The notes: generated by a model not told the origin, from the letters alone. A DNA stretch of 63,918 nt from a virus (IMGVR_UViG_3300037722_000495:1-63918), one strand, 5' to 3'; shown: positions 12,048 to 48,503, counted from the stretch's first letter. Program-made: numbers and translations.

Positions 12048-15000
12048 ATGGCTTTAAATGCGAATACACAAATTCAAGATAAAGTTGTTGACAGAGCAGC
12101 TATGGTTAGACTTTATGAAAAGCGTGTAAACGATAAAGTCGAATTAACCTTAGATGGGCATAAAGTACGTGTTGATAAACTAATAAGAGAAGCAAAACTT
12201 TCTGATAAAGGTCTATTGAGACTGAGAGAAGCTATTGATCAAGATATTAAAAGTACTTTTAAGGAGATTTATAATACCAATAAAAGATCACTTTTAGATT
12301 TATTTACAGATCAAGCTTCTTTCGCTTATCAAAATATAGAAACCACTATGGGAAAAATCTGGCGTACTCAGAGACCTACTCGTAGAGTTGCTGAAGAAGT
12401 GGTTCTAGAAAGACCTTTATACAAAGAACATACCTTAGCCGCTGGATGGGCAGGTATTGGAGAAAACGAAAGAAAACGTTTAGAGCATGTAATAAGAAAA
12501 GGAATCGCTGATGGTAAATCAGTAGAAGATATAGCTCTTGCTGTACGTAAAGGTAATATACATAATATTACTAGAGCACAAAGCAAAGCTCTCGTTGTAA
12601 CCTCAATTACTAGTGTTCATGCTCAAGCAGATCATGCAGTTTATAAAGCTAATGAAAAAGCTCTTCATGGTTGGCAATACGTTGCAAAATTAGATTCTCA
12701 AACTACTAGATTATGTGCTTTTAGAGATGGTACAATATATCCTATCAGTGATACTGAACATCTACCACCTGCACATTTTAATTGCAGATCAGTGACGGTA
12801 CCAGTTTTTAAATCTTGGTCTGACATAGCCAAACTGGAGAATGTTGCTTATGTTCGTAAAAGAAATATTCAAAAGTTATCTAAGAAGGATTTGGATTTCT
12901 ATGATGGTCTGACTCCTATGCAAGAGTCTTATCATTCTTGGCTCCAAAGACAAACCCCGGAGATTCAATTACGTCATTTAGGTGATTATCAGAAACTTGA
13001 ATTGTTCAGAAAAGGACAACTCAATGCTAAAGCTTTTTTGAATGAAGATGGTAGAAGTTTGGGCATAAGAGAATTAAGAAAACAATCAGATGAGCTTTTC
13101 ACACTTCCTAATGACACCAGACGTTTTGCTATTGCTAAAGAAAAACTAGATTCAATGCATTTAGGAGCTTCTACACCAGATGATTTCATTAATGACACCG
13201 TTCTTACTAATACTCTAAGAGATTATTATCTACTACAAGCTAGTGAACTAGATGGAACCCTTTCATTAACTAATTATAGAGGAGCCTTGATAGGAACCAA
13301 GAAAGCTGTCAAAAGACGAGTATTAATTTCTCCTCCACGAGAAGACCAAATGATTTTTAATCCTTTGACTGGTAGATATCAGGATGTTCGTCTCTATCAA
13401 CCTAATCAAGCTGTTTTGAGTAATGGTTTAAGACTTGTAGAAGAAAGTGATAAGTTATTAGATCGTGATAAGAAGTTCATTAATGACTTTATTAATTCAT
13501 TAGACCAAAGAATGGGTGCAAATGAAAGAGCAGTAATAGCTGATAATCTAAGGATAATTTTTGGTAGATACAGAGACAATAAAGAAGTATGGTCTAATTT
13601 TAAAGCTGTAGTCCAGGGACAAATCAAATATGATGTAATGAATATCTCTGATGCAATAGAAACACAAATAAGAAAAGATTCAAATGTATTTAAAAGACTA
13701 TCTCAAGATAGTTACTTGGATACCATATTAGGACCAACGTCTTTAGATGAATTGCATGATAATTTTATTGATAATATTATTGCTAAAAATAAGTGGGAAG
13801 ACACAATGGCTCCTAAGCTCGCAAGAGAATTGAGAGAAGTTTTTGATCCTCATATTCCATTGAAAGTATCTTCCAGATTATCTGAAGATGAAATAAAACA
13901 ATTTTATCTTAAGTTGGCCCATCGATTAAGTTTAGCTGATTTACCTGATTTTGACCAATTTGCTGTAACTATAGGTAGAGATCTTTATAATCTAGCTAAC
14001 TTAACTGGCAAAAGATTGGAATGGTATAATTTAGGAAAAAGCATTCTCCAGTCAAAGAATGCATCCCGCTTGTATGAATTAGAAACATTCGGAATACAAA
14101 AAAGAAGAATGAAATCCAGATTAAGTGGTTCTTATTTTGGACCTTATTATGATACTCTAGGTTTTAATATTCGTATTGTTGATCCTAGAATCCAAGAGTA
14201 TGCTAAATTAACCAGGAAAGTGGAATTGGGTTTACGTGTAAGTGTAACATCAAAGAAGAATCGATTGCTTTTTAAAGAAGGTTATAAAACCTATTTTATT
14301 GATAAAGGTCCATTAGGTACTATAGATACTAGGATTCCTATTACTAGTACATCATCTTTCTCAGATTTTCCCGAAGAATTTCTTGATAAAGACATGATAG
14401 ATGCTCTTAATTGGGCTGCTAAAGCTGAATATCGTGTTGATCCTGATTTTCATGATTTTATAAATAAACTATTGTATTTCGAGGATGATAAAGGCCGAGC
14501 AAGACATTTTAATGAACTTAATGAGTATAGAAAGTATATAGCGGCTCGTGGTGATGCTTATGAACGGTTTAAAGCCATGCAATGGTTAAGAAAAGATAAT
14601 CGTTCGTTCTCTAATCATCCATTCATAGATCATCGAGCACGTATCTATGATAGAGGCCTTATCGGTCCTCAGAGTGGTGAAACCTTCAGACCATTTCTCA
14701 ATACTGCTGAGGAAAAGATTTTAGGTGTCAATGGTTATGAGAATCTTCAAGATCAAATTGGAGCATTCTTAGGTGGTCTCAGTGATGAATTAGAAGGTAA
14801 GTATAATTCTTTGACCTTTACTGGTAGACAGAAGATTGCAGAGAAATGGCGCAATGATCTAGTGACTATTGGTAATCATATGTTGAGAAAGAAACCTAAT
14901 GATATCAGAGCTATCCTGGAACATCCTTTAGTGCATCAGATTGAAGGTGAAGAATTAGGTAAGTTCTTAAGATTTGCCATAGAACAAGCTAAGATTGATA

Positions 15001-18000
15001 ATTATCTAGAATCTTTTGATAAAATAAAAAAGTACTCCAAACAGAATCTCCTTAATTTAGAAAAATATAAAACTGCATTAGCTTTAGAACAAGATGCCAG
15101 TTCTTCAGGAGCACAGATTATTGCGCTAACAACTCGTAATAAGCAATTAGCTGAACTTTCTAATGTAATTCCAACGAATCAAAAGAAGCGTCTCTATGAT
15201 GAGATTGCTGCTGCAACTGCGAGAGATCCTCGATTTGTTAAACTCAATGAGAAATTAGGATTGACAGAGAAAGATTTACGCAAGGCAGCGAAGGCGCAAA
15301 ACATGGTAGAATGTTGCCATGTATAAACTCCGTGAATTCAGGGAAACCCATTTTTGAATGGGCAATCCTGAGCCAAGCTTTAGGAGGAATCCTTTAGAAG
15401 GTGCAACGACTAAGACAAACGGTCCAGAACGGATTATGAAGTCTGTAGAGATTATGCCGATCTCGAAGCGCGGAGACGTAATATTCCATAGTGGAGGTTT
15501 ACGTAAAAGATAGTCTAACCGTATAGTAATATACGACAAAAGGAGTAAAAATGAATTATTATAAACAATATTTTAATTTGATAGAAAAACATGGACAACA
15601 ATCAAAACCAATAGAAGGTTATTTTGAGAGACATCATATCATTCCACGCTGCTTGGGTGGTAAAGATGAGTACGATAATTTGGTCTATTTAAATGCTAGA
15701 TGTCATTTACTTGCTCATTGGTTACTGATGAAAGCTTTACCATCTGAGAAAGGACTTAAAATCGCTTACACAACAATGAGTTCTAGAGATGGTATTAAAT
15801 TATCTCCAATAATGTATCAAATAGCGAAAGATGCTATTAGTGGTGATAATTCAATGCTTGCACGTGCTGTAGTCACACCTTTAGGTGAATTTCCAACAGT
15901 AGCAGCTGCTGCTAAAGCACATAATGTAGTCAAAGCTATTATTTCTAGAAAAGCAGGAAGTAAAAGCATATTACACCAAGGTTATTATTGGAAAGATTTT
16001 ATTGTAAAAGGTGATGTAGCTGATGGTAGAAATGCACATCATTTAAGAAAAGGTGTTTGTACACCTTTCGGAAACTTTGAATCTACACGTGAAGCTGGAA
16101 GAGTGCTTGGCATTAATCACTCTACCATCACCAAAAGAATAAGACGTGGTGATAAAGGCTACTCCTATATAAATTGAACATTCTACGGAGCAGGAGAGAG
16201 AACAGGTATTTTGAATGTTGAAGGAAAGCTTGCTAAGATATTAGGAAAAGATACTGAAACATTAGTCGTTAAAGCTTCTGACAGAGATACTGTATTAAAT
16301 GAGATATCAGCTAGGATTGCAAGAGTTGAGAAATTCGATCCAGAAGCAGCTTTGGAATTACGCGCTTTAAGAAATGATGTGAAAGATGTTTTTAATAAAG
16401 GCTTAGATCCAGGTGATGATATCTTGGAAGCTTTATGGTTCCTCGATCCTAAAACGAGAGACCTGGTTGAAGTAATGTCAAAGAATTATACTAAAGTAAT
16501 CACTCCAATGGATTTTAAAATAATTGCCAATATAATGAGTGAACATCTTTCTGAACAAGTTCCTATTCTTAAAGATTTTACTCGTTTCTTCGGAAGATTA
16601 GCTGAGGAGTTTTTGATTCATTCGAAACCTTCTGAAAGTGCTATGGATTGGAAAAAGATTGCTTCCATAGCAATTACAGGGACAAGAAAGAGTGGCTATC
16701 GTTTACCACCCAGGATTAGTGAGTTCTTCGGATTAAATCCTAATGAGTCTTTAAAAGAGAAAACATTAAAACGTTTATCTTTCTGGAAACCTGATAGTCC
16801 ATTAGCTGATATTCTTTTTGGAAATAAACAATCCAAATACAGACGTACTGGAACTATTATTGGAGGAAAATCCATAGTACTGCCAAGTATAAAAATAAAA
16901 CTAGAAAAATTCAAGCATCTTAGAATGGAATTCTTTAAGAGTAAAGATATTATAAAAGAAATGCAAATATTTTACACAAACAAATTACCTAAGAGATGGA
17001 CAAATATTCCTTGGGTAAATTTTGATGGTAAAGTAGTAGAGCAGAATTTTACTCAAACATTTGAAGAAAGAATCTTTTATAAAGATAAATTTGGTAATTG
17101 GACCACTAATATTCTTCAAGTTCCTCAGAAAACTGAAGCGACTTGGTGGGAACAAGTGATTAATAAATCTGGTAAGATTAATGATATCGCAGATTCTACT
17201 AAGGCTCGTACTGCATATGCAGTTAACGGTATTGATTTGCCGTTATAAAACTCCGTGAATTCAGGGAAACTCTCTAGTAGACAATCCTGAGCCAAGCTTG
17301 AGTGGGAACACTCTTGAAGGTGCAACGACTATTATGTAGGGCAGAAGTCTGCTCGAAGCGCGGAGATAGTTAGCATAACTATAAGAGATAGTCTGATCTG
17401 TATGGTGACATACAGCAGTTAATACAAGGAGATAACTAATGAAGTTAGAACGCTTAAAAGCCCTTTTCTACTATAAAGATGGAAATCTGTATAATCGTGT
17501 TTCTAGAGGTTCAGTTAAAAAAGATTCACTTTCAGGATATATTGCAGAAGATGGCTACAGACGTATTAGAGTTGATGGTAAATATTATTATATCCATAGA
17601 CTTATATGGTTTTTAATTACTTCGAAAATAGTTCCAGATGATCTCTTTATTGATCATATTGATGGAAATCGACTTAATAATGATATAAATAATTTACGTT
17701 TAGCAACATCTTTGGAAAATCAATATAATAAATTTAGACAAAGAAATGGTTCTAGTGTTTATAAAGGTGTATGGTATGATTCGAAAAAATCATGTTGGAA
17801 AGCAGCAATACGCTTAAAAGATACTAGAAAATATATTGGACAATTTGAAAGTGAATTAGAGGCTGCTATTGCCTATGATAAAATAGCAATAGAATTGCAC
17901 GGAAGATTTGCCAAACTCAATGTATTAACGGGTCAGGAGTAACGAACCTGATTGAACATATTGAATCATTCTAATGATGCTGTAATTGTAAAAAGATTTC

Positions 18001-18353
18001 ATCTATGGGGTATGAAGAATGGTGTTTCTACTTCTACTATCCATGACGCCTTCTTTGCTAATGCTGCTGATATGTTGGAAGCAAGAAGAGCTTTACGACA
18101 AAATTACGCAAAAGCATTAGATAGAAATGTTATAAAAATGACTTTGGATGAAATGTTAAAAAGAGGATTACCTAAAGAAATATATGATAGATATCTTGAA
18201 GAAGCAATTGAAAAAGGTTTAATACCTACTCCTGGTAAATCTAGAATAAATGGTAAACTAATGAAGGATACCGATATATTGTTAAGAGAAGATATTCTTC
18301 AGGAGATTCCAGAAGGATTCTCAACAGATTATGGTTGGTATGGTGTAGGTTAA
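12048..18353 (+). CDS. MuF/SPP1-gp7 minor head protein fused to T7-type RNA polymerase; join(12048..15307,16177..17230,17964..18353), about 1567 aa
   Basis: N-terminal MuF motifs WQYVAKLDSQT..LC and PPAHFNCRS. RNAP motifs DHRARIY, motif A QDASSSGAQ, spliced motif B RKAAKAQNMVTFYG, spliced VNGNHSNDA, motif C IHDAF. Exons join in frame (4704 nt). Confidence 0.9.
15308..16176 (+). mobile_element. Group I intron 1 (869 nt) in MuF-RNAP motif B
   Basis: P1 ACATGGT/GCCATGT with U-G at splice site; P10 AGAATGTT pairs with exon AACATTCT; core GAATTCAGGGAAAC, AATCCTGAGC, GTGCAACGACT, AAGATAGTC; ends in G. Confidence 0.93.
15551..16177 (+). CDS. Intron-encoded HNH homing endonuclease
   Basis: HHIIPRCLGG..D..NLV.L...H..AH motif; two C-terminal TP.G.F....A repeats (NUMOD-like); AAGGAG RBS. 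Confidence 0.88.
   Translation: MNYYKQYFNLIEKHGQQSKPIEGYFERHHIIPRCLGGKDEYDNLVYLNARCHLLAHWLLMKALPSEKGLKIAYTTMSSRDGIKLSPIMYQIAKDAISGDNSMLARAVVTPLGEFPTVAAAAKAHNVVKAIISRKAGSKSILHQGYYWKDFIVKGDVADGRNAHHLRKGVCTPFGNFESTREAGRVLGINHSTITKRIRRGDKGYSYIN
17231..17963 (+). mobile_element. Group I intron 2 (733 nt) in MuF-RNAP
   Basis: P1 TAACGGT/GCCGTTA with U-G; P10 TGATT/AATCA; same core motifs; ends in G; splicing restores VNG-NHSND. Confidence 0.93.
17439..17942 (+). CDS. Intron-encoded HNH-AP2 homing endonuclease
   Basis: HRLIW..IDHIDGNRLNN..NLR HNH; YKGV..W.A.I..IGQF..E.EAA.AYD AP2 domain. Confidence 0.9.
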   Translation: MKLERLKALFYYKDGNLYNRVSRGSVKKDSLSGYIAEDGYRRIRVDGKYYYIHRLIWFLITSKIVPDDLFIDHIDGNRLNNDINNLRLATSLENQYNKFRQRNGSSVYKGVWYDSKKSCWKAAIRLKDTRKYIGQFESELEAAIAYDKIAIELHGRFAKLNVLTGQE

Positions 18354-18361
18354 AAACAAAC

Positions 18362-18375
18362 CGTTAAATTAACCC
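18362..18375 (+). promoter_or_regulatory. Motif A copy 1 (CGTTAAATTAACCC), candidate phage promoter
   Basis: One of 4 identical intergenic copies; upstream of scaffold and capsid. Confidence 0.65.
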
Positions 18376-18468: not shown

Positions 18469-19119
18469 ATGGCTGATGAAAACAATAACAATGAAAGTCA
18501 GAATAAATCTGATCAACCTAATATTGAAGAGCTTGTACAACAACAACTAGAAGAAAAGCTCAAAGATATTAAGAGTAAGCTGGATAAAGCTTATGAAGCT
18601 CGTGATGCTGCAATGCAAAAAGCAGTAGAATTGGAGCAAAAACAACGTGAAGAGAACATTAAAAGGTTAGAGGCTGAAGGAAAAGAAAAAGAAGCACTTG
18701 AGGCTAAACTGGAAGACATTAATAAAAGGCTTTTGGAAGAGCAAGCAAAAAGCAAGACTTATGAACAACGAAATGTTGAACTTTCGAGAGACATTGCCGT
18801 TAAAACAGTTCTTGCTACTATGCCTTTTAGAAATGAAAAAGCAATTGCGATGGCTTTCAGTGAAATTACCGGTCAATTGATTCAGAATGCTAATGGAGTG
18901 TGGGTCCATAAGTCTGGGTCTTCTATTGCTGATTTTGTAAAAACTTTTTCTGAAGATGAATCTAACTCTTTCTTGTTCAAAGCTGCTGAAAATAATGGTG
19001 CTGGTTTGAAACCTAATTCTGGTTCTTCCTCTAATGATAAAAACACTTCTCTTTTCTCGAAATCTCAAGAGGAAGTTCTTAAATTAGCCCGTGAGGGTAA
19101 ACTAGCAAAGCGAAAATAA
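18469..19119 (+). CDS. Capsid scaffolding protein
   Basis: Coiled-coil, charged, Gly/Ser-rich tail, directly upstream of capsid gene. Confidence 0.75.
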   Translation: MADENNNNESQNKSDQPNIEELVQQQLEEKLKDIKSKLDKAYEARDAAMQKAVELEQKQREENIKRLEAEGKEKEALEAKLEDINKRLLEEQAKSKTYEQRNVELSRDIAVKTVLATMPFRNEKAIAMAFSEITGQLIQNANGVWVHKSGSSIADFVKTFSEDESNSFLFKAAENNGAGLKPNSGSSSNDKNTSLFSKSQEEVLKLAREGKLAKRK

Positions 19120-19144
19120 TTAATTCACTAAGGATTATAGTAAA

Positions 19145-20329
19145 ATGGATATCGATCTCGCTGGAGCGGACAATTTTGTTCTTCAATCCGCTATTTCTGC
19201 ATACTCGGATGAGGCTTACACTAATGCTAAGAAGCTGTCTTCTACTGGCATTGTAGGCAGCAATCCTGATATTGACACTAAAACTGAAACTTTTATTGGT
19301 CAGGTTCGTTGGTTCAAAACGATGAATCCTACTGTAAACGTTGCTTCTCTTACCGATCCTACCGCAGGTACCAAATCTAATTATGCTTCGGACTTCCTGA
19401 CCTACGTAAAGACTGTCCGTACCTATGGTGGTGAAAAAGTAAATATGCAGCAAGTTGTTACCCAGCAGGATGGTCTTGCTAAAATTGGTCGTGACTTTGC
19501 TGAACATCATGCTCAAGATGAACACGATGCTATCCTTTCGGTTATTAAAGGTGTAGCTATTTCGGAACTGATTAACGGTACTGGTGCTGGTTCTGGTCAG
19601 GCCGGTCTTGGTGGTCAAACTTTCGAGAATGATCCTACTGATAAGCGTTACGGTTTCTACGTAGACCTCGGTGGGGCAATGCCTGTAATTGCTGCTACTG
19701 ACGTTATTTCTGGTGCAGCTCGTGCGGAAGGTTTTGTACAAGCTTTTGGTATGGCATATAAAGACTACGAGCCTGCTTATGCATATCTTGTAGTTTCCCC
19801 GGCAGTAATGGCTTCTCTGCGTTCTGCTAACCTGGTTGATTCCACTACTGTTACTGATGGTAATGTTGAATTTAACACTATCTTTAATGGTAAATTCCGT
19901 TTGATTATGACTCGTGCTAATCAGAGCCTGTTGACTGCTGAATTGACAAAGCTTAAGACCGGTGCTGGCGTGGACCTGCATGTTGATAGCACCAAAACCA
20001 GCTTCATTGTTCTTCCTGGTGCTATTGCTTTGGAGCAGCTTGAAGTGCCTGTTCCTGTTGAGATTACCAGAGATGGTAACTCTTACAAGGGTGGTGGTTC
20101 TACCTCCATTTGGCATCGTTGGGGCTATGTTGCTGCTCCTGCAGGGTACAATTGGGCTGGTTCTGCTGAGAAGTTTCCCTCGAATGCTGAATATCAATAT
20201 GCTGTTGAAGCTGGTACCCCTACTGCTGTTACTGCTCTTACTGATGCAATTGCCAACACTACTGGTACTTGGGTTCGTAAATCTGCTTCTGCTCTTTCTC
20301 TGGGAATCCTTCCGATCTTCCATAAATAA
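19145..20329 (+). CDS. Major capsid protein
   Basis: 394 aa, strong high-expression codon bias, lies between scaffold and head-tail adaptor. Confidence 0.8.
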   Translation: MDIDLAGADNFVLQSAISAYSDEAYTNAKKLSSTGIVGSNPDIDTKTETFIGQVRWFKTMNPTVNVASLTDPTAGTKSNYASDFLTYVKTVRTYGGEKVNMQQVVTQQDGLAKIGRDFAEHHAQDEHDAILSVIKGVAISELINGTGAGSGQAGLGGQTFENDPTDKRYGFYVDLGGAMPVIAATDVISGAARAEGFVQAFGMAYKDYEPAYAYLVVSPAVMASLRSANLVDSTTVTDGNVEFNTIFNGKFRLIMTRANQSLLTAELTKLKTGAGVDLHVDSTKTSFIVLPGAIALEQLEVPVPVEITRDGNSYKGGGSTSIWHRWGYVAAPAGYNWAGSAEKFPSNAEYQYAVEAGTPTAVTALTDAIANTTGTWVRKSASALSLGILPIFHK

Positions 20330-23406: not shown

Positions 23407-23412
23407 AAACAT

Positions 23413-40700: not shown

Positions 40701-41821
40701 GACAAGTAATTTTCACTTCCAAAGTAAAATATATTTCTCCACTTGCAATTTGTAATTATAATGGTTTAGCAGGTATAACAGACATTGATCACATTAAAGT
40801 TGAAGCAATTGGTGGAACTAACTCAGCTGTAATGGAAATCAGATCATCTGTAATGTCCAATATTGATGGGAGATTAGCTGCTCAACATACACTAAAAACA
40901 GATGTAAATGGTAAGTTAGCTGGATTTGGTTTAGCTAATGATGGAACAATCTCTTCATTTGATTTTCTAGCTGATAAATTCTTCTTTTCAAAACCAGATG
41001 GTACAGGTACTAAATTATTAATGGCTATTGATGGTACTCATGGAGTAATCATTGATAATGCATTAATTAAGAATCTAACTGCAGCAAATATAGTAGCAGG
41101 TTCTATTACAGCTGACAGATTCTCTGTAGTAGATTTGTCAAGTATCACAGCAAATATGGGTGCGATAACTGCAGGTACAATATTAATGAGTAATACCTCG
41201 TCATGGGTCAAGAGTAATAATTATATAGCAAATTCTGCAGGATTTTTAATTCGTGGAGATGGTTTTTCAGAATTCCAAAATGTGAAAGTAAGAGGGGATG
41301 TCGAAGCTACCTCATTAAAAGCAAATACTCTAATGGTAAATACTGGTAACATTGTTGATCTATCTGTCAATTCATTCAAGATTGCCAATGGTGCCATCGT
41401 AGAAACTGCCTTCTTTAAGAAAACAACTAATACAACTATCAATGCAGGGTCCACTGTAAATTTGGCTACTTTATCTGGATTTGTTCAATCAGGTTACCCT
41501 ATACAGTGTTATATTGAAACCACATTTTTAGGAGCTACTGGATTAAACGGAGATAAAATTACAAATATCCGTTTTGAAATTCTTAGAAGTGGTGCAGTAA
41601 TTTATACTTTTCCTTGGTCAGATTCACATATACACACAGTTGATGCATTTGATAATGAAATAATAACTGCTGAGATGAAAGTAGTGCCTGCACATATAAT
41701 TTATGATACATCTACCATAACAGCTGATTTAGTGTTCAGAGTAACCTGTCCTTATAATGGTGATAATTGGTACGGCACTTTTGGACCTATTTCATTATTT
41801 CTTATGACACCGAGGAAATGA
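34778..41821 (+). CDS. Central tail fibre / host-specificity protein (J-like), 2347 aa
   Basis: LPV.FG, SNNPA.VLLEYL, EPGDIV hub motifs; FN3-like YYWVRGVN; TLKTDVNG..AGFGL..F.ADKF (DUF1983-like). Confidence 0.85.
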   Translation: MSMGWVAAIIAVISGIYSAVNQAKARKAAKKQKRKAEAQADAQKGFQLVVEKEVKSLPVAFGRNKLGGVRVYHKVKRNFVYSDIYGTGRKFFANHEASAINGKHYRLINLLSGTPSLELDGTGKPVVYSLTQANQLSVFYITRNEDLWIPRSYKSFDDSIISGVMKTITPNFYWIDKYPNIDTIFTSECYTETKNVKDLQGNIEELVLSDLSMRPSSLEDLNIIFPPFIPGGHNSLGASEGWIYNNYYYIQQVLSQGSLNEIIELNVDDKYYNDPSYKPGLLIHAYKDGGTPCALMTSNDVERANAKFTNMSFLTGAFKLNRDDPQFMGTPEVQAFVEGIRIRSINKINGIYSENSIQTYSNNPARVLLEYLRNSNFGMGLDETQIDYESFYNAMILCDRVILEDQPKVGKIWMNNPHVLGETNTKTRDIKIFECNLSIDTTKDFRSNIEMILGTMHEADLIWSDGKYKLQFLYPRLFEDNNYYSPGEVIQIDDEYPRLFRCITATDQSPLINPTNWLEDVVQITITDDDIQLSSEVTIDYPSADNKLNFATIRYFSEDMDFEEDTVSWPNKEPDDVNDIVYQTYFTEDNNIPSETDEFFYGCSTSIHALAYAEQLVRASRHLITYSMKVSSRIIGIEPGDIVRVNSQIFSIDNILIRISDVETEDGGVVKITGEQFDANILAYNIPFYELETPATSYINNTIKQATDLRLTEIKGENRITYRLSWAKSNDSRVSKYAIKYTTDTIENISSATVWEEYIITYNNQCNIYTLDGTFTFAVVAMTASGRQAPFEDYEYGSTWPVISANVTSYENDMDLKYADLGNKIADLLYDNILTAQEKILLLEVWITYTAQHSQIVSEANALNITLELVSYTEIFDVLNSYMPVLLSDLESNSRFEDFSFVDTDLSVKQLSGTLFRRHWSLISEYLIILKNKMSINSLIPLLPDTPYNLVVTAYFKEIGLTWEISDETNIMNYEVWRNVINDLGTARPVKITTSRFALDAPPDLFLERDFYYWVRGVNKDGQPGEFNAIEGTHCITVKDPSYILQLLQDELTESQLHSDLTSRIDLIDAPSTGLVAKTDLINQQLNNLQGEVAELSNTPSYEDTVTYEIDDLVVYEEALYRALAQTTSNLPTDLNFWIKIGDYTSLGGVVSGHSIQLNDHESRITYNEGEFEIVNGKIDGTIILIDDLEEDVSLQSQDITSIKNTINHTESGNAALYSKQNLINNTLNLNLNADQKWTDIDNKPTNFGGQNLMNPRYSTFEETDTPSVFNSNIITDFSTVGNISPKALRVYATSSYGNTKLGVNFSDYNINLPPNGKWLVSFYIKSSTTNRTMYARLLDDGGFAYGTNTFTMTTIDTWQRKSLICDCSSVIRTKFIIMFVAVSAYTYFTIDGIMIEPVIGDQIEPSPFIRPAFNINYAQYGADVTATSIAFTGLESRVENTEESINTFTQSINTLQSTINNETTGLDATYQKAVTVEGELDTLSGTVGSHTNSLTTLSNTLNLNLNEDQKWSQIFDKPTNFASGNITPSRYSDFEEDLLPPLSLFNCTAIQDNTIFYYGHNSLKLTKTGIDAYCFLSNTIIDFNVKLTPNRKWILSAFINCELTNQPIQLTIRKSDLSYPVIETLYTSAISGQWIRLHTIVDLSSSPVNAGNIKIDYDGEIGSSIWIDGVMLEPLIGDQTTPSIYVVPNLETTFSQYGADITATSDAFVELDTTVTLMDGVVVGHTNSITSLDTAINHPDTGLLKLNSEHSVRLDAIDNIETGALATLGTQVNILSADISNEETGLAAAHAEIITISNDLTTIAGSASSSAEKISQLSAIVEGNIVIFEEKFNSPGGYNSWDKFSGTTNLTLLEDSTRIGGKYLRIGNNSGNDTAWINNILRIPVRDDVIYKITIVIRRVYGSGTFFGGFTGFNESLTKTISSVDNEYPLRNVCASFYTAANSNPLSNPEWTTLVGYSRSINGPEWPEEAVGQRQVIFTSKVKYISPLAICNYNGLAGITDIDHIKVEAIGGTNSAVMEIRSSVMSNIDGRLAAQHTLKTDVNGKLAGFGLANDGTISSFDFLADKFFFSKPDGTGTKLLMAIDGTHGVIIDNALIKNLTAANIVAGSITADRFSVVDLSSITANMGAITAGTILMSNTSSWVKSNNYIANSAGFLIRGDGFSEFQNVKVRGDVEATSLKANTLMVNTGNIVDLSVNSFKIANGAIVETAFFKKTTNTTINAGSTVNLATLSGFVQSGYPIQCYIETTFLGATGLNGDKITNIRFEILRSGAVIYTFPWSDSHIHTVDAFDNEIITAEMKVVPAHIIYDTSTITADLVFRVTCPYNGDNWYGTFGPISLFLMTPRK

Positions 41822-41822
41822 T

Positions 41823-42212
41823 ATGTATATTATTACAAGATATTCAATAGACACAGGTCAAGTTATTGATTCAATTGGTAGTTCTTCATCTGTTCCAACA
41901 ATAGAAGAAGCACCCGAAATTGGGTTATATTCTGGCTTTGTGGATGGAGAGACTCATTATTTTCAATCTAACGAACCAATAAAAAGGCCAGATAATACAA
42001 GCACAATATCTGAAAATACGGTGATTGCAAATGATTTTGACATTATACAACTTTCAAACATACCAGTTCCTAGTAAGATTTACATTAATAACGATTCATA
42101 TGATGTAATTGAAGAAATTGTCGAACTTACTTTCGGAACTCCAGGTACATATAAACTTAGAATAGAAGCATTTCCTTATTTACCTTGGGAGGAAACTATA
42201 AATGCTTATTAA
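41823..42212 (+). CDS. Tail-associated protein
   Basis: Follows fibre; PGTY.LRIEAFPYL. Confidence 0.5.
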   Translation: MYIITRYSIDTGQVIDSIGSSSSVPTIEEAPEIGLYSGFVDGETHYFQSNEPIKRPDNTSTISENTVIANDFDIIQLSNIPVPSKIYINNDSYDVIEEIVELTFGTPGTYKLRIEAFPYLPWEETINAY

Positions 42213-42627
42213 AATTGCGGAGAGATCTTTAAATCAACATAAAGAACAAAAACTCAAAGAAGTTCACAGACAATATGAATTAGTAAAAAATGGGATTCAC
42301 CCAATCACTGGTGAAAAATTATCTGTAGAATGTGTGACATCTCAGGGTAACTTTATAATGAATGCAGGTGAGAATGCTGCTGTAAAAATGTCTTTAGGTG
42401 TACAATTATATGAACGTTTAGGTAAAGCTACAATGAAGAAGATAAGAGATTTCTATAATGTAGACCATTTAGATGTTCCTCTGCCTGTAGCAATTGAAAT
42501 AATGCTTCAACAAGGTACAACTGGAAATAATCATTGGGAACGTAAAGGCGAACTTGTAAGCCTAATAGAAAATTCAAATGATATCCAAGAACTCCTCAAT
42601 CTAGAAATTGACTTCTTCGGGAGTTGA
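42202..42627 (+). CDS. Tail fibre assembly-like protein (DUF4376-like)
   Basis: K..KL.E, RD..N..H and terminal I.......EL pattern; last late gene. Confidence 0.5.
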   Translation: MLIKIAERSLNQHKEQKLKEVHRQYELVKNGIHPITGEKLSVECVTSQGNFIMNAGENAAVKMSLGVQLYERLGKATMKKIRDFYNVDHLDVPLPVAIEIMLQQGTTGNNHWERKGELVSLIENSNDIQELLNLEIDFFGS

Positions 42628-42796
42628 CCCTCAAATTTCGACAACTTAGTAGCCAGACTGGACCGGAGTGCCTCGACCTGCAGCCGGTCTAAGTCCCATA
42701 CTGGAAATTTCCCTGGCTCGACAGAGTGGAAAATTAGAGAGAGTTATTAAATGAAATTTTAGGGTCATTGTTATCTCAGGAAAACTCCGAATTTCC

Positions 42797-42810
42797 CGTT
42801 AAATTAACCC
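42797..42810 (+). promoter_or_regulatory. Motif A copy 2
   Basis: CGTTAAATTAACCC; 42791-42810 is identical to 62370-62389. Confidence 0.65.
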
Positions 42811-42938
42811 ATAAGCAGGTCCCTCCGATAGTAATATAAAATGGTGATAACTGCCAGTAGTCTCTTTTTAAATTATATGTAAATATTCTTACTTAATTCT
42901 TAGTTATGATTTTTAATAATTGAAATAATTTTTAATAT

Positions 42939-42956
42939 GCCCTCTTAATTGAGGGC
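42939..42956. other. Hairpin GCCCTC-TTAATT-GAGGGC
   Basis: Inverted repeat; near-identical copy at 63251-63270. Confidence 0.6.
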
Positions 42957-42965
42957 TTTAAAATG

Positions 42966-42993
42966 CGGAAAATGAGGTATCTTATATGAAAGA
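42966..42993 (+). promoter_or_regulatory. Motif B copy 1 (CGGAAAATRARGTATCTTATATGAA), candidate phage promoter
   Basis: One of 3 near-identical intergenic copies; upstream of early small genes. Confidence 0.7.
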
Positions 42994-43043
42994 GATAATA
43001 TCGTAATAACTCTTACAACTAATCTCATATAAGGAGACTCATC

Positions 43044-43226
43044 ATGTTGGACATTATTTACATCATTCTCGACATCGTTTCTCAGGTAGCGCTTGTTGGT
43101 CTTGAAGTGTTTGATTATCTATTTATGAATTTCATTGAAGCTATTTTTTGGTTGTTAGGTTTTATTTCTATTGTGTTTTATATTGGAATGGTTGGGCTCG
43201 AACTTTTTTGTTGTATTAAAGATTAA
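43044..43226 (+). CDS. Small membrane protein
   Basis: AAGGAG RBS, hydrophobic. Confidence 0.55.
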   Translation: MLDIIYIILDIVSQVALVGLEVFDYLFMNFIEAIFWLLGFISIVFYIGMVGLELFCCIKD

Positions 43227-43260
43227 TATCAAAGACAATCATTATAATAAGGAGACTAAA

Positions 43261-43620
43261 ATGTCTGAAAAAACACTCGATATACTCACAAGAGAGATAC
43301 TGAAAGATCTTTATGAGAAAAATCTAGAAGCTCTTAAACAGTTACAAGATGCATATGAAAATGGAATAGAATTGAAGCATTGTCCTCTCTGCGAAGCAGT
43401 ATATGAATGTGGAGTATGTGTTTGGAATATGATGTTCGAACAGGGAGAAAGTCAATATGAATTGTGCAGCTCTTTCTTTTTATATCAATGTGAATTTTCT
43501 GCTTCTGTGTTTCGTGGAAATGTAATCTTACGAAATGAAACTTCTTTGGCACTTAGATTGGACCATCTTCTGGAACAAAGAAGATTTATTTTGAGAAAAA
43601 TTGAGGAGTTGGAAAAATGA
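43261..43620 (+). CDS. Hypothetical protein with CPLC..C..C motif
   Basis: AAGGAG RBS before ATG 43261 rather than the track start at 43171. Confidence 0.55.
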   Translation: MSEKTLDILTREILKDLYEKNLEALKQLQDAYENGIELKHCPLCEAVYECGVCVWNMMFEQGESQYELCSSFFLYQCEFSASVFRGNVILRNETSLALRLDHLLEQRRFILRKIEELEK

Positions 43621-43805
43621 AAGACAGACCATTGGTACTAGTGATTTTTCTGAACATTGTTGACGCAATACTGGTGAGACAAGATAATGTATCAGAACAA
43701 ATAGACGCATTCTGTACTACCTTTCATCGATATGAAAGTTTGTGTAAAGCTCTCCATTCCACAAAAAGAATTATGGATGAATCGATATTTCATTAGGAGA
43801 AGAAT

Positions 43806-43886
43806 ATGTGGACAATTGTAGGTATCATTTCAGTAGTTTGGGTTCTCAGTAAACTAGTAGTACTTGAAAACAGGTTACTTAAATAA
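43806..43886 (+). CDS. Small hydrophobic peptide (26 aa)
   Basis: AGGAG RBS; MWTIVGIISVVWVLSKLVVLENRLLK. Confidence 0.45.
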   Translation: MWTIVGIISVVWVLSKLVVLENRLLK

Positions 43887-43919
43887 ACTCAACAAAACTC
43901 TTGAAAGGAGACACTGAAA

Positions 43920-44276
43920 ATGTTCTACTTAAATGCGATCACAACGATGGGTCGGAAGATACTTTTCGGTGTCTTTGAAACGAAACAGGCAGCATTGGAT
44001 GTTGCAAGAAAAATGATCTTCGAAAGAAAAGATATTGAAGGTTTCTCAGTGACAGATACTTCACTTTTAATGAAACCTCCTTTAACTTTTTCGGAAGCAA
44101 TGGAAAAGAGTCAATGTAAAGGTCTTAATTGTGAACCTTGTCTTGATTGCACACTTTCAACTTGTTGTTCGATTAAATGTATTGGTTGTAAATTACCAGT
44201 ATATTTTGAATGTATAATCGAGGATATTCCTTATTTCTTTCAATGTCCTCATTGTGGAAAACATCAAACATCTTAA
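43920..44276 (+). CDS. Cys-rich hypothetical protein
   Basis: AAGGAG RBS; multiple CxxC. Confidence 0.55.
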   Translation: MFYLNAITTMGRKILFGVFETKQAALDVARKMIFERKDIEGFSVTDTSLLMKPPLTFSEAMEKSQCKGLNCEPCLDCTLSTCCSIKCIGCKLPVYFECIIEDIPYFFQCPHCGKHQTS

Positions 44277-44295
44277 AAATTGTTAGGAGAAAAAC

Positions 44296-44499
44296 ATGAT
44301 TGTTACCAGAACTTCACTTCTTACTAGAAAAATACATTCTATAGAAATAGATGTAGATCCTGAAAAACTTGAAGTATATGAACAAGGTGAAGGATTAGCT
44401 CAAGACATGTTTCCTAATTTAACACCCGATGAACGTGAATTTATTATAACTGGCATTACAAAGGAGGAGTGGAATGTTGCGTTTTCTAATGATGAGTAG
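44296..44499 (+). CDS. Conserved-type phage hypothetical protein
   Basis: QD.FP.LT.DEREFI.TGIT.EEW motif; AGGAG RBS. Confidence 0.6.
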   Translation: MIVTRTSLLTRKIHSIEIDVDPEKLEVYEQGEGLAQDMFPNLTPDEREFIITGITKEEWNVAFSNDE

Positions 44500-44953
44500 T
44501 TTATTGTTTTTTCTTGTAGGTTGTTCTTCAGAGGTCAAATTAGAGGAAACTTCTGAAGAACAACCTTTACAACAAGTCCAACCTTTACAAGAAAAGGTTG
44601 ATCGTTATGAATCGATTCTTAGTAAAATTTTTCCAGATTGGCATCCAGAAAAAACAGTATTTAGTAAAGATGTTACAGTAACTTGTTATACATCCAGACC
44701 TGAAGAAACAGATGATACTCCCTGGACAACAAGTAGTAATACAAATGTTAGACCAGGGATTATTGCAGTGAGTAGAGATCTTTATCCATTACTGATTGGA
44801 AAAACTGTTATCCTTGAGGGTTACGGTACTTTTAAAGTAAGAGATAAAATGAATGCCAGATATGCTAATTCTGTGGATATTTGGTGTGGTGATCTTGAAG
44901 CAGCTAAGAGGCACGGAAGAAGAGCTACGAAAATGATCTGGTTAAGTGAATAG
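44474..44953 (+). CDS. 3D-domain (MltA-like) lipoprotein
   Basis: Lipobox LVGC; T.Y.S....TD..P..T.S, IAVSRDL, V.D.M and VDIW motifs. Confidence 0.75.
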   Translation: MLRFLMMSSLLFFLVGCSSEVKLEETSEEQPLQQVQPLQEKVDRYESILSKIFPDWHPEKTVFSKDVTVTCYTSRPEETDDTPWTTSSNTNVRPGIIAVSRDLYPLLIGKTVILEGYGTFKVRDKMNARYANSVDIWCGDLEAAKRHGRRATKMIWLSE

Positions 44954-44972
44954 AAGAGTAACATGTAAAACA

Positions 44973-45000
44973 CGGAAAATAAAGTATCTTATATGAAAGA
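44973..45000 (+). promoter_or_regulatory. Motif B copy 2
   Basis: CGGAAAATAAAGTATCTTATATGAAAGA, intergenic, upstream of the genes leading to RNAP2. Confidence 0.7.
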
Positions 45001-45105
45001 TAGAAATCATATTTCAGAAAGGAGGTTAATATTTCTAAATGAATAAAGAGTAAAATCTTAACAGAATCTTAACAGAATCCTACTAGAACTCAAAAGGAGA
45101 AAACT

Positions 45106-45336
45106 ATGAAAAAACTTATTGAAACTACCCTCAATTTCACACTCGCAGTATTCGTCATTGGTCTCGGTATTATGGCATTCAAATCACCCACCTTCTTCGG
45201 TAACCTCATCATCTCCCTCGCAAACATCAAAGTATTGGCAATTGCTGCTGTAGCTTTCGGTGTTCTTTACATGTTTCTTCTTTGGCGTCATAAGAACCGT
45301 CAGGAAGAAAACAAGGAAGGAGGTCACAAATGTTAG
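45106..45336 (+). CDS. Small membrane protein (2 TM)
   Basis: AAGGAG RBS; hydrophobic segments. Confidence 0.6.
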   Translation: MKKLIETTLNFTLAVFVIGLGIMAFKSPTFFGNLIISLANIKVLAIAAVAFGVLYMFLLWRHKNRQEENKEGGHKC

Positions 45337-45521
45337 GAGTACTTTTTACCTGGGTGATCATTTTCGCGCTTATCGCATACACTGCCGACAAGATCATGCG
45401 TCTCTCGGTCTTCATGACAAGATTCTCCCAAAAACAAGAAAAAGAGAAACAAGAAAAGAATCGAGAACAGAATATTAAATCAGCAATCGTCAAACCAGGA
45501 TGTCTTTCGAATCCTAATTAA
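45330..45521 (+). CDS. Small membrane protein
   Basis: GGAGG RBS; N-terminal TM segment. Confidence 0.55.
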   Translation: MLGVLFTWVIIFALIAYTADKIMRLSVFMTRFSQKQEKEKQEKNREQNIKSAIVKPGCLSNPN

Positions 45522-45536
45522 ATAACAGGTTACTCT

Positions 45537-45662
45537 ATGGCTGCGAAGAAGGATAATTTATTAATAGAACTTTTAATAGCATCCTTAATAATTGTTCTGT
45601 TAACAAAATTAATCTTTCTCGCAGTCATCTTTCTTATCCTACTCTTATTGATTAGGATTTAA
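45537..45662 (+). CDS. Small hydrophobic peptide (41 aa)
   Basis: MAAKKDNLLIELLIASLIIVLLTKLIFLAVIFLILLLLIRI; weak RBS. Confidence 0.35.
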   Translation: MAAKKDNLLIELLIASLIIVLLTKLIFLAVIFLILLLLIRI

Positions 45663-45664
45663 TC

Positions 45665-45748: not shown

Positions 45749-45800
45749 CCCAGGGGGACCCTAAATCAGTTCCCCCTGGGTTCACCTTCTTTTTTTTTTT
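45747..45800 (+). terminator. Strong hairpin with T11 tract just upstream of RNAP2
   Basis: AACCCAGGGGGA/TCCCCCTGGGTT 12-bp stem, then CACCTTC and T11. Confidence 0.6.
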
Positions 45801-45809
45801 GGAGTATGA

Positions 45810-48503
45810 ATGAGAGATATTCTAATCAACGATCTCAAGAAAAGACTGGCAGATGAAATAACAAATAACATGCCATTAAAGTATCTCAGAAATCATTCCA
45901 TTGAAGAATGTTTCAACTTAACTGTACCAGTAATGTATCTGTATACAAAGAAACCTAAGAGGCAACAAGATGTGATCATTTTGATGTCTGAATTAATCTG
46001 TGCAATAGGACATAAAATAAGAGATACATTTAAACTTAAGAAAGACACTTCTTTAGCTGCAAAAACTGGTGCATTTTTTCTTTATTCTTTTGAAAGAGCA
46101 GAAATCGTAAGAACGTTTTTAGGTAAAGGAAAAAATGATCACGGAACAATGCTGGTTGATCTTTTAGAACCGGATACTCTCTCAGAGTTATGGACTAACT
46201 TACCAGAAGAACACAAGGATAAACTACCTTCAGAAACACCTTTCGAACCTTGGATGACTACTAAACATCCAACTGGTAAAAACATGGTGAAAACTCGTTA
46301 CAATCCTGTTTTAAAAACAATCAAATTAGACACCCACAAAATTCTATTTGATAATTTAAACAGATCACAACAAGTTGGTTGGTTAATTAACAAAGAGATT
46401 TATAGTATATCAAGGTGGGCTTTGAGAAATAAAGTTGAAGCCTTTTCAGATATTTGGGAACAACACAATCCCGAAGCTAAAGCAACAAAGTTAAGAGAAG
46501 CGAAATCTATAATTGAAATTGCTACATTGTTTTTAGATAAAACTTTCTATCATCTTTATAGCTACGATTTCAGAGGTAGAAAATATGTTTCTACAGCCTA
46601 TCTAAATGAACAAGGGGGTGATCTGTCAAGAGGATTACTTTTGAGAAAAGATAAGAAATCAATAGGAAAACAAGGTTTCTTTTGGTTGATGGTCTCAATT
46701 GCAACAAATTGGGGTGGTGACTCCGGTAGAGAAGATGAATTGAAAACTGACAAGATCCCATTAGAAGACAGATGTCTTTGGTCGGTAGATAATGAAGAAA
46801 TCTTATTAGCCTATGCAGAGCAACCTAAGATTAATCAGGGGTGGATGTCAGCTGATAAACCTTGGCAATTTTTGGCTGCTTGTATTGAACTAAAGAATCT
46901 AAGAGTATGGCAATGTAATTTCACAAGAGAAAGAATTGATACTCCTTCTGGAACATTTTATACTAGTCCAGATTTCAATAATTTTGAATATGAGTCTCAT
47001 CTTGAATGTTATGTGGATGGTAGCAACAACGGTAGTCAACATTTATCTGCACTCACAAGAGATCATGTGACTGCACCCTTAGTTAATCTTGTAAAAAGTA
47101 AATTTCCTGGAGATCTTTATAAGTTTATAGCAGATAATGTATGGGATAAGATACAAGCCATCTTAGATGATTTTGATGATTCGATTATCATGAAATGTGA
47201 AATTTTCATTGATAACATGATAGAGTTTAAGAAACGAATTATCGCAGCTGAACCAAATAGTGATATACGGAAGGAAGCTGTAGAAAGTATCAAAAAGTTA
47301 AAAAATGATAATAAAGGTATCAGTGAACAGGCATGTGCAGTGTTCTGGTGTAGGATAAAGGACGCTAAACATAAGAGAAAAATTGTTAAAAGAAACATTA
47401 TGACACTTCCGTTGATTGGCGGAAGTAAAATCGGGTGAACTCAGGAGATCTCCATTCGCCGTGGACAATCCTGAGCCAAGCTTGAGTGGGAACACTCTTG
47501 AAGGTGCAACGACTAGAACATACCATCCAGGACGGATGATGAAGTTCATAGAGTCAAGTGACTCGAAGCGCCCGACTTATAAGCGACCAAATTGCTTATT
47601 TGATGATATAGTCTGGTCTGTATAGTAATATACAGCTGTAAGTGATTTTGAACAGAAAGGAGGATATAAAGGAAAGAAATTATATTTAGGTCTTTTCGAT
47701 ACTGCTGAGGAGGCCAATAAACGTGTAAAAGAAGAAACGAAGAGATTGTACGGCGAATTTGCAAACTCTGATTAACAAAAATCACTTACGGGTAAAGTCT
47801 AATGAACTTTGCTGAACATTACGATGGCGGAACTCCTTATGGCTTAGGACAACAGCAAATAGATGATGCAAAGAAACATGGGATAGAGCTGCTCTATTAC
47901 ATGGAACATAAATGGGGAGCATACCTAGGGAGACTTATATTTGAGACATGTAAAAGTGCTCTCCAAAGACCAATGCAATTGCTATCTATATTTGAACAAG
48001 CTGGAAAGAAAGCAGAAGAGGAAAATAGATGTTTATCTTGGACAGTTCCAATAACTAACTTTCCCGTAGTACAATATTATACTGAAGGAATTGTTCAAAA
48101 AACTTGGATACAATATGGTCCTCCTTATGGTCCTAAACTAAGTACTGGTTATTACCGTAATACCTTACAATTACGTTTATGCTTCATTGAGAAAACAATT
48201 CTATCAAAAAGAAAGCAATCTCAGGGAGCCAGTCCTAATGCTATTCACAGTTTAGATGCAGCGCATTTAGCATTGACAATCGATAGGTGTCCTTTTCCTG
48301 TGACTACTATTCATGATTCTTTTGGATCACTCCTTGCTGATATGCCAGATTTATACAGAATTGTCAGAGAGACTTTTGTAGAGTTGTATCTGGAAAATCC
48401 TCTGACAAAATTAATGGAAGATATAGGAGGAAACATAGATGAAATAGAAATGGGTGAACTAGATATCACAGAAGTCTTGGAATCCGAGTATTGTTTTTCT
48501 TAA
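45810..48503 (+). CDS. T7-type single-subunit RNA polymerase (RNAP2); join(45810..47412,47824..48503), about 760 aa
   Basis: DFRGRKY, motif A DGSNNGSQH, spliced motif B RKIVKRNIMTLPYGG, SPNAIHSLDA, motif C IHDSF, terminal YCFS. Confidence 0.93.
47413..47823 (+). mobile_element. Group I intron 3 (411 nt) in RNAP2 motif B
   Basis: P1 ACTTCCGT/GCGGAAGT with U-G; core AATCCTGAGC, GTGCAACGACT, GATATAGTC; P3 TCGGG/CCCGA; ends in G; T+AT restores the motif B Tyr. Confidence 0.92.
47662..47775 (+). pseudogene. Remnant of HNH-AP2 homing endonuclease (AP2 tail only)
   Basis: Reads GYKGKKLYLGLFDTAEEANKRVKEETKRLYGEFANSD*, similar to the intron 2 endonuclease C-terminus; no in-frame start. Confidence 0.75.

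Follow-up and report, generated by a model that had tools for sequence, protein, structure and literature searches.

We analyzed a linear virus record of IMG/VR (IMGVR_UViG_3300037722_000495; 63,918 bp, estimated to be 92% complete), hereafter called the window, which, judged from its sequence, is a siphovirus contig and kin to the Naomviridae. Its G+C content is approximately 33%, and the + strand carries all large open reading frames (ORFs). The window contains two genes for single-subunit RNA polymerases (RNAPs). The first, placed between the portal and scaffold genes, encodes a fusion of a MuF minor head protein domain with an RNAP (MuF-RNAP), and the second, RNAP2, lies between a cluster of small ORFs and the replication genes. 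The original prediction for this contig had claimed two such genes at these places in one siphovirus and suggested a two-stage transcription cascade. Both genes were indeed found there, and the matches to the RNAP profile PF00940 in the contig were confined to them.

Gene structure of the two polymerases and their introns

The exons were mapped by tblastn with the uninterrupted 1463-aa protein of the roseophage DSS3_VP1 and with gp47 and gp49 of EBPR siphovirus 1, and the splice junctions were then read base by base. The Rfam model RF00028 (gathering score of 50) identified three group I introns in the window, all within the two polymerase genes, at 15298-15536 (75.6 bits, E = 2e-17), 17152-17415 (72.0 bits), and 47335-47635 (75.5 bits). 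The last of these starts is too early, the true P1 helix being at 47406-47426. MuF-RNAP, with 1567 aa, is encoded by three exons, and RNAP2 by two (Table 1); both spliced frames are free of internal stops. The predicted location of MuF-RNAP in the head module stood, whereas the 1092-aa ORF at 12048-15326 turned out to be exon 1 only of a gene that runs to 18353. Likewise, the size of about 760 aa given for RNAP2 agrees with the spliced protein of exactly 760 aa, whereas the contig itself carries two raw ORFs (45810-47438 and 47802-48503) with a 411-nt group I intron between them.

Each 5' splice site is preceded by a U that pairs with a G in P1, and each 3' splice site is preceded by a G (omega-G). 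The P1 helices are CAUGGU/GCCAUG for intron 1, AACGGU/GCCGUU for intron 2, and CUUCCGU/GCGGAAG for intron 3. The introns have inserted at the codons with the highest conservation in both enzymes: intron 1 lies in a Val codon three codons before the catalytic Tyr, intron 2 two codons before the conserved His1440, and intron 3 inside the codon of the catalytic Tyr of RNAP2. Introns 1 and 3 both lie in the homologous catalytic motif B of their enzymes, at sites that are 8 nt apart. Over 100-113 nt, the ribozyme cores of the three introns share 79-82% identity. Neither gene could give an active enzyme without self-splicing.

The joined readings agree with those of uninterrupted homologs. The reading KAQNMVTFYGAG at intron 1 and AVNGNHSNDA at intron 2 are contiguous in intron-less homologs, and the joined reading of RNAP2, MTLPYGGTPYGLG, agrees with the uninterrupted RNAP2 of the related record G001, which reads VMTLPYGGTSYGLG across the third junction. 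A single uninterrupted frame extends over both MuF-RNAP junctions in 14 of 24 related IMG/VR loci; among the other ten, three stop short of the junctions, and in seven the frame is broken, at these two sites or at an additional one near residues 990-1020. Rfam also identified eight further group I introns in the two polymerase genes of 10 related loci. These comparisons suggest that the introns are removed from both polymerase genes by self-splicing. As elements, the three introns belong to a known type of mobile group I intron.

Introns 1 and 2 each contain a homing endonuclease ORF. The TGA stop of the first spans the 3' splice site, and the AP2 match of the second (31.7 bits) is under the cut-off of 33.3. 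Of an HNH_3-AP2 endonuclease, intron 3 retains just the final ~35 codons, a remnant that matches the C terminus of the intact endonuclease in the intron found at the same RNAP2 site of the related record G004 (Rfam, 80.3 bits). The further site at residues ~988-1021, just before catalytic motif A of MuF-RNAP, is occupied in loci L011, L013, L018, and L027; Rfam confirmed a group I intron only in L013 and matched nothing in the gaps of L011 and L018. In another related record, G002, the RNAP2 gene (40682-43795, minus strand) is broken near residues 255 and 408 into three or more pieces, and Rfam found no group I intron in two RNAP2 loci of G002 (L031 and L033).

Table 1. Positions of the polymerase genes, introns, repeated motifs, and other features in the window
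Feature	Position	Strand	Remarks
MuF-RNAP exon 1	12048-15307	+	aa 1-1086 plus 2 nt of Val1087; MuF, linker, RNAP N-terminal domain, T/DxxGR (R863), catalytic motif A (D1016), first half of catalytic motif B (K1082)
Phage_Mu_F domain (PF04233, minor head protein)	12480-12797	+	48.8 bits vs cut-off 29.6
Group I intron 1	15308-16176	+	869 nt; in catalytic motif B, between NMV and TFYG; omega-G 16176
Intron-1 homing endonuclease ORF	15551-16177	+	208 aa; Pfam HNH (8.7e-8), NUMOD1 (4.7e-5)
MuF-RNAP exon 2	16177-17230	+	second half of catalytic motif B (Y1090), fingers, specificity-loop region
Group I intron 2	17231-17963	+	733 nt; between AVNG and NHSND; omega-G 17963
Intron-2 homing endonuclease ORF	17439-17942	+	167 aa; HNH_3 (7.1e-15), AP2 (1.9e-7)
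MuF-RNAP exon 3	17964-18353	+	H1440, catalytic motif C D1466, C terminus WYGVG, stop
RNAP2 exon 1	45810-47412	+	aa 1-534 plus first nt of the Tyr535 codon; R255, D403, K527
Group I intron 3	47413-47823	+	411 nt; inside the codon of catalytic motif-B Tyr535
RNAP2 exon 2	47824-48503	+	Y535 completed, specificity loop, H676, catalytic motif C D699, C terminus EYCFS, stop
Motif A copy	18362-18375	+	9 nt after the MuF-RNAP stop, upstream of scaffold and major capsid genes
Motif A copy	42797-42810	+	follows the tail genes; 170 nt before motif B copy 1
Motif A copy	49331-49344	+	just ahead of the SSB gene (49359) and replication genes
Motif A copy	62376-62389	+	12 nt upstream of motif B copy 3
Motif B copy 1	42966-42990	+	precedes the first small ORF (43044) by 54 nt
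Motif B copy 2	44973-44997	+	upstream of small ORFs 45106-45662 and RNAP2
Motif B copy 3	62401-62425	+	upstream of ORF 62475-63146
GC-rich hairpin + TTT	42939-42959	+	terminator-like; between motif A (42797) and motif B (42966)
Small-ORF cluster	43044-45662	+	candidate early genes; between motif B copy 1 and RNAP2
Terminase large subunit, C-terminal part	582-1925	+	
Tandem 36-nt copies	9980-10051		two copies, 92% identical, AATGAACTTGAAATTAAGAAACTCGAAGAACAGAAG; upstream of the portal gene
Portal	10213-11760	+	directly upstream of the MuF-RNAP gene
Scaffold	18469-19119	+	
Major head protein	19145-20329	+	
3191-aa ORF	23463-33038	+	aligns with annotated tape-measure genes of relatives
SSB gene	49359	+	in the T7-like replication set
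tRNA-Leu	60870-60957		anticodon TAA; after the ligase gene and a 315-aa gene without known function

Relationship and fold of the fused polymerase

The Phage_Mu_F domain covers aa 145-250 of MuF-RNAP (E = 4.5e-11; 43.9-48.8 bits across scans) and is the only match to this family in the contig; the MuF role must therefore be filled by MuF-RNAP. The exons of MuF-RNAP scored under the PF00940 cut-off (17.2-19.3 bits vs 22), with profile positions 306-371 matching 17967-18164 in exon 3; the two exons of RNAP2 scored above it (108.1 bits, 6.2e-31, and 86.1 bits, 3e-24). The catalytic set is complete in both enzymes. In MuF-RNAP it comprises R863, D1016, K1082, Y1090, H1440, and D1466, which align to the matching stretches of T7 RNAP, and in RNAP2 R255, D403, K527, Y535, H676, and D699. 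An alignment of 34 MuF-linked sequences revealed that the Asp of catalytic motif A and the Lys, Tyr, and Gly of catalytic motif B are invariant, and that the Arg of T/DxxGR, the His, and the Asp of catalytic motif C are at least 90% conserved.

The profile of this 34-sequence family was aligned by hhalign to T7 RNAP with a probability of 99.0% (E = 7.4e-18) over 436 columns and T7 residues 398-877, a span that includes T/DxxGR and catalytic motifs A, B, and C. The same profile matched RNAP2 of G001 with a probability of 97.9%, the N-terminal domain included, and had no significant match to the mini-vRNAP of phage N4 (probability of 1.2%, 41 columns, catalytic motif C only). Chains of N4 mini-vRNAP were also absent from the PDB sequence matches of MuF-RNAP, where single-sequence and 8-sequence profile searches gave weak T7 matches only (E = 0.0044 and 8.6e-4, respectively).

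We modeled with AlphaFold the polymerase part of L004, an intron-less relative that is 68% identical to the window protein. With the 34-sequence alignment, the model reached a predicted local distance difference test score (pLDDT) of 83.3 and a predicted template modeling score (pTM) of 0.80, whereas an earlier model with a 7-sequence alignment was unusable (pLDDT 47.7, pTM 0.29). The L004 model has a right-hand fold including a T7-like N-terminal domain. The top Foldseek match was mitochondrial POLRMT (E = 2.8e-17), followed by T7 RNAP (E = 5.5e-17). A second structural aligner superimposed the model on T7 RNAP with Z = 30.4 and a root-mean-square deviation of 3.4 Å for 525 aligned residues. 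The Z-scores were 22-30 for the T7 and mitochondrial enzymes (T7 residues 30-883) compared with 16.5-20.0 for N4 mini-vRNAP. Profile alignments and the model of the relative together indicate that MuF-RNAP is a MuF protein with a complete T7-type RNAP in its C-terminal ~980 residues, and that the fused polymerase is T7/mitochondrial-like and not N4-like in both sequence and fold. Between MuF and the T7-aligned part lie approximately 200 mostly helical residues (~aa 360-565; 13125-13740 in the window) with no structure or family match in match lists that were filled by the polymerase part. Pfam reported only Phage_Mu_F and RNA_pol on exon 1 and six relatives, no search being aimed at a zincin-like metallopeptidase.

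The MuF-linked enzymes form a large family. A profile search of 1.84 billion representatives retrieved 190 proteins at E ≤ 0.001 and 95 at E ≤ 1e-30, many of them incomplete or split by introns. The MuF N terminus is kept in all six diverse full-length representatives; five of the six matched PF00940, three of them above the cut-off (22.9, 27.8, and 90.7 bits). A megablast search of the MuF-RNAP gene against 50,697 phage records gave one 43-nt match only.

The relationship of the two enzymes was examined with a quick maximum-likelihood tree of 22 sequences and 564 columns, which was rooted arbitrarily at the midpoint and in which N4 RNAPII and P0123 sit on long branches. The free enzymes, namely those of T7, HTVC011P, Xp10, and Kolga together with RNAP2 of the window, G001, and DSS3_VP1, fall into a single clade with a support of 98 in the Shimodaira-Hasegawa-like approximate likelihood ratio test (SH-aLRT). 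Twelve of the 14 MuF-linked enzymes form a separate clade (SH-aLRT 100) on a long stem, and the remaining two representatives are unplaced. Of the phylogeny that the original prediction had proposed with the T7, Xp10, and N4 enzymes, RNAP2 was placed with T7 and Xp10, and N4 vRNAP was left out as unalignable. We also considered the fused polymerase as a recent copy of RNAP2, an origin that we rejected because the separate clades and the long stem speak against it. The sequences point to two anciently diverged T7-type single-subunit RNAPs. RNAP2 accompanies MuF-RNAP in four of five related records, including all three that are at least 90% complete; the fifth record, without an RNAP2 match, is a 65%-complete fragment.

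Repeated motifs and a proposed order of transcription

Two distinct repeated intergenic motifs had been predicted as well, and the copy numbers of both exceeded those in shuffled sequences. Motif B (CGGAAAATRARGTATCTTATATGAA, with the core GTATCTTATATGA) has three copies in the window, and none of 100 shuffles gave any match. Its 13-nt core was found in all five related records, on the coding strand only, and the reversed control gave 0 matches; each of the four relatives holding RNAP2 has 2-4 copies within a few kb upstream of that gene. The 17 sites in six genomes consist of CG, usually C/G plus an A-rich stretch, a fixed gap, and then GGTATCTTATATGA, giving the pattern ..CG[C/G]AAA-N6-GGTATCTTATATGA, and they are located ~20-85 nt before a Shine-Dalgarno sequence and start codon. 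Downstream stems with varying loop sizes occur at many, not all, of the 17 sites, and an N4-like hairpin promoter was not adopted as a model for motif B because only part of the sites have such stems. Motif B may be a conserved promoter of ~27 nt that is read by MuF-RNAP.

Alternatively, the host RNAP could start the infection, as with T7 and Xp10. Motif B would then be a host-type promoter or some other regulatory site, and a packaged MuF-RNAP would have another main job, such as transcription-driven DNA entry, priming, or boosting of late transcription. T7-like RNAPs of other phages do need the host RNAP for their own expression, as is generally known and as the Xp10 annotation indicates, and the pairing of MuF-RNAP with motif B is a proposal. 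However, the blocks of motif B, with CG 10 nt before TATCTTATATGA, misfit the sigma-70 spacing across the 17 sites, and a sigma-70 scan missed motif B and showed no enrichment. Moreover, the 13-nt core is kept among phages with proteins just 43-65% identical, which is more typical of a phage-encoded recognition protein. We regard a start by the host RNAP as rather unlikely, and transcription of motif B by MuF-RNAP is the assignment that we prefer.

Motif A (CGTTAAATTAACCC, searched as CCCGTTAAATTAACCC) has four copies at three or fewer mismatches where 0.40 were expected, and 0 of 100 shuffles reached four. Its copies precede the scaffold and capsid genes as well as the replication genes, and G004 carries copies at the same relative places, after the MuF-RNAP stop (32281) and before the SSB homolog (65664). 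Among the other relatives, G002 has five exact coding-strand copies and G003 has near-copies. In G001, no equivalent was recognized after the MuF-RNAP stop or before the SSB gene. The RNAP2 proteins of the window, G004, and G002, in which motif A is present, have in common a 12-aa insertion and similar residues in the specificity-loop region, and those of G001 and G005, in which motif A is missing or weak, are without this insertion. The presence of motif A thus tracks the specificity-loop variant of RNAP2 in all five genomes. In MuF-RNAP, the aligned region shows conservation among the window, G004, and G001, and motif B is present in each of them. Both patterns are suggestive only, because they also follow relatedness. 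In G001 and G005, RNAP2 must rely on a different signal.

The assignment of the motifs might also be reversed or shared, with RNAP2 reading motif B and amplifying its own operon and MuF-RNAP reading motif A or both. Consistent with such an arrangement, two copies of motif A (42797 and 62376) precede a copy of motif B, so that both motifs could feed the same genes, and motif B persists in G001 and G005 without motif A. On the other hand, with an injected enzyme acting on motif A, transcription would begin with the scaffold, capsid, and tail genes (from 18362 on). Neither the 5/5 agreement of motif A with the RNAP2 loop variant nor the conservation of the matching MuF-RNAP region in the three motif-B carriers fits a reversed assignment, to which we give very little credence compared with motif B for MuF-RNAP and motif A for RNAP2. 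The terminator-like hairpin between the two motifs was read from the sequence and was not reported by the terminator scan.

Under the preferred assignment, the following relay can be proposed. The MuF domain would place the 1567-aa protein of the late head operon in the capsid beside the portal. A few copies of MuF-RNAP would be packaged and would leave the capsid along with the DNA. The ejected enzyme would transcribe the ORFan clusters headed by motif B, including the RNAP2 gene, and RNAP2 would then transcribe the replication and structural genes from motif A. This relay from an injected MuF-RNAP to RNAP2 is the best-supported reading, with packaging, promoter assignment, and splicing deduced from sequence, and we consider it probable, if by a modest measure. 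The predicted two-stage cascade is partly supported by the retained catalytic residues, by the place of the contig's sole MuF protein between portal and scaffold, by motif B before the RNAP2 clusters and motif A before the scaffold/capsid and replication genes, placements that recur in relatives, and by the co-occurrence of RNAP2 in 4/5 records, whereas the three introns had been missed.

It is also conceivable that MuF-RNAP is not delivered, either because the polymerase part is cut off at head maturation or because the enzyme is active only in the producing cell or is a decaying relic. Packaging is deduced from the MuF fusion and the gene position, and virion proteomics is absent from the main text of the Naomviridae paper. 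Against non-delivery, a family of 95 representatives at E ≤ 1e-30 retains both the fusion and the catalytic residues, intact frames cross both junctions in 14/24 related loci, and the contig has no second MuF protein to take over this role. Non-delivery therefore appears improbable to us, and injection of MuF-RNAP is retained in the relay.

Several observations weigh against the relay. G001 has no motif A and G005 only two matches with two mismatches, which are at best weak, and both records hold RNAP2. The assignment of motifs to enzymes draws on their positions and on a pattern of three versus two genomes that also follows phylogeny. Only four copies of motif A are available, and the bases after its block are unconserved, unlike the initiation region of T7-group promoters. 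In three genomes (the window, G004, and G002), motif A lies just upstream of motif B, which the relay does not explain, and neither does it explain the passage of a 1567-aa protein through a long tail. Neither motif has an exact core match in EBPR siphovirus 1 or in the first 50 kb of DSS3_VP1. The count of sigma-70-like sites between 41.5 and 50 kb (27 vs 34.5 ± 5.7, without enrichment) is a weak test. In addition, the structure model is that of the relative L004 and not of the window's own spliced protein, and no holder of the window sequence was listed among the RNA runs checked.

DSS3_VP1 has a repeated motif of its own of ~20 nt, ATAGG[G/T]T[G/A]CGTTAAAGAGGGGGA, at approximately nine sites (2332, 6580, 7408, 19202, 19236, 29396, 45925, 46392, and 46551), several of which are just before annotated genes, including portal and PhoH. 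It has CGTTAAA in common with motif A and is a candidate phage-polymerase promoter.

Extending the relay to the wider group, the Naomviridae and their uncultured kin may have built their own N4-style programme independent of the host polymerase, in which a portal-docked and injected MuF-RNAP acts from motif B to produce RNAP2 and in which, in the window, every step would depend on splicing. We hold this broader proposal tentatively, at slightly less than an even chance. The idea is directly testable because DSS3_VP1 and DSS3_PM1 grow on Ruegeria pomeroyi. Polymerases are delivered with the genome in N4, the phiKZ/AR9 jumbo phages, crAss-like phages, and P23-45, and if the MuF-linked enzyme is injected, such delivery arose once more. 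A plain T7-type enzyme would then be carried by a common head protein, making MuF a general vehicle for very large cargo, and the combination of T7-like replication genes with independence from host transcription in these siphoviruses would be explained. The two enzymes and their candidate promoters would form a new orthogonal pair of single-subunit polymerases.

Comparison with known systems and the remaining gene layout

Autographiviridae and the siphovirus Xp10 rely on the host RNAP for their early genes, and to our knowledge they have no second capsid-linked polymerase. RNAP2 resembles their enzymes in belonging to the T7/Xp10 clade and in adjoining genes for a T7-like single-stranded DNA-binding protein (SSB), DNA polymerase, exonuclease, primase-helicase, and ligase.

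In N4 (Schitoviridae; gp50, then RNAPII gp15/gp16), a capsid-carried single-subunit RNAP transcribes early genes that include a second T7-like RNAP, and the window is similar in this respect as far as its genes indicate. The few early promoters (three motif B copies here) and the membership of both enzymes in the T7 superfamily are further likenesses. The carrier is different. N4 vRNAP is a 3500-aa protein of a podovirus, with N- and C-terminal regions for injection and encapsidation and a zincin-like domain (Iyer 2017), whereas here an N-terminal MuF domain is the carrier in a siphovirus. RNAP2 is one chain, unlike the two subunits of N4 RNAPII, and the family profile is without a significant mini-vRNAP match, the fold being nearer to T7/mitochondrial RNAP. 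The parallel with N4 that had been drawn in the prediction thus extends to the logic of the proposed relay and fails for the fused polymerase, which is of the T7/mitochondrial type.

The prediction had also presented N4 logic with different components in a long-tailed phage, for which a published two-polymerase precedent exists. The long-tailed Thermus phage P23-45 has a virion RNAP fused to the tape-measure protein and a non-virion RNAP (PMC10770324), and there, too, an RNAP fused to a virion protein transcribes the gene of a second phage RNAP. The polymerases of P23-45 are, however, two-barrel, cellular-type enzymes with a tape-measure carrier, whereas both enzymes here are T7-type right-hand polymerases and the carrier is a MuF head protein.

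The cultured Naomviridae roseophages DSS3_VP1 and DSS3_PM1 share the gene order of the window, namely portal, MuF-RNAP, scaffold, capsid, tail, small genes, RNAP, and T7-like DNA polymerase. The 1463-aa "head morphogenesis" protein of DSS3_VP1 aligns end to end with MuF-RNAP, with 28-30% identity over 100% of exon 1, and the second polymerase of both phages is a 732-aa RNA polymerase. Unlike in the window, both polymerase genes are intron-free. The closest named relative is EBPR siphovirus 1, with 58% identity over exon 1; its record displays intron 1 as "head protein", "HNH endonuclease", and "hypothetical protein". Both polymerase genes are routinely annotated as split "head protein" and "hypothetical" ORFs in this manner (EBPR siphovirus 1 gp47 and gp49). 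The main text of the Naomviridae paper has 0 occurrences of "RNA polymerase", and no published description of the MuF-RNAP fusion was found in the literature searched, which did not cover the supplements of that paper, where the gene might be listed.

MuF-fused polymorphic toxins and effectors likewise have an N-terminal MuF carrier and a variable C-terminal enzyme that is thought to be delivered with the DNA (Iyer 2017; MuF-RelA_SpoT). The cargo here differs from a toxin with its immunity gene in being a transcription enzyme of ~1200 aa that serves the phage. For the introns, precedents are g16 of G7C-like N4 coliphages, in which splicing of a group I intron was demonstrated by reverse-transcription PCR and the junction peptide lies in catalytic motif B (Babenko 2019), and a group I intron in an RNAP gene of PhiPA3 (PMC11620839). 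Common to all is a mobile group I intron with a homing endonuclease inside a catalytic motif of a phage RNAP; the window differs in having three introns across both paralogous polymerases of one phage, one of them with its endonuclease lost.

The gene layout was derived from PHROG and Pfam scans of the window proteins. The ORF for the terminase large subunit (TerL) covers just profile positions 267-595 of 807, and the N-terminal part lies either beyond the left contig end or is cut off by another insertion. TerL is also split in relatives, with a gap between 16422 and 17015 in G004, and the TerL gene of DSS3_VP1 carries an intron with an endonuclease VII gene according to the Naomviridae paper. 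In G004, the primase-helicase match is split by ~970 nt (75908-76878) and the ribonucleotide reductase match is split across the record ends (79309 to 117). Insertions in core genes seem to be common in this phage group.

G001 has a 132-nt unit in tandem across its ends (1-260 and 76860-77325). Two "terminal repeats", one of 42 nt in G004 and one of 127 nt in G001 (inside the 132-nt tandem array), were considered as physical genome ends and rejected because they resemble assembly overlaps; no order of entry can therefore be taken from them. The "direct terminal repeat" of G001 is probably an assembly overlap inside the repeat array.

Among the eight ORFs of the small-ORF cluster scanned with PHROG, six gave no match and two fell into families of unknown function. 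The T7-like replication set 3' of RNAP2 includes a gp2.5-like SSB, nucleotide kinase, family A DNA polymerase, and exonuclease, together with primase-helicase, ribonucleotide reductase, and ligase. The other tail genes encode a major tail protein and a distal tail protein, and the first third of a 2347-aa ORF aligns with the position of the annotated "tail protein" gene of EBPR siphovirus 1.

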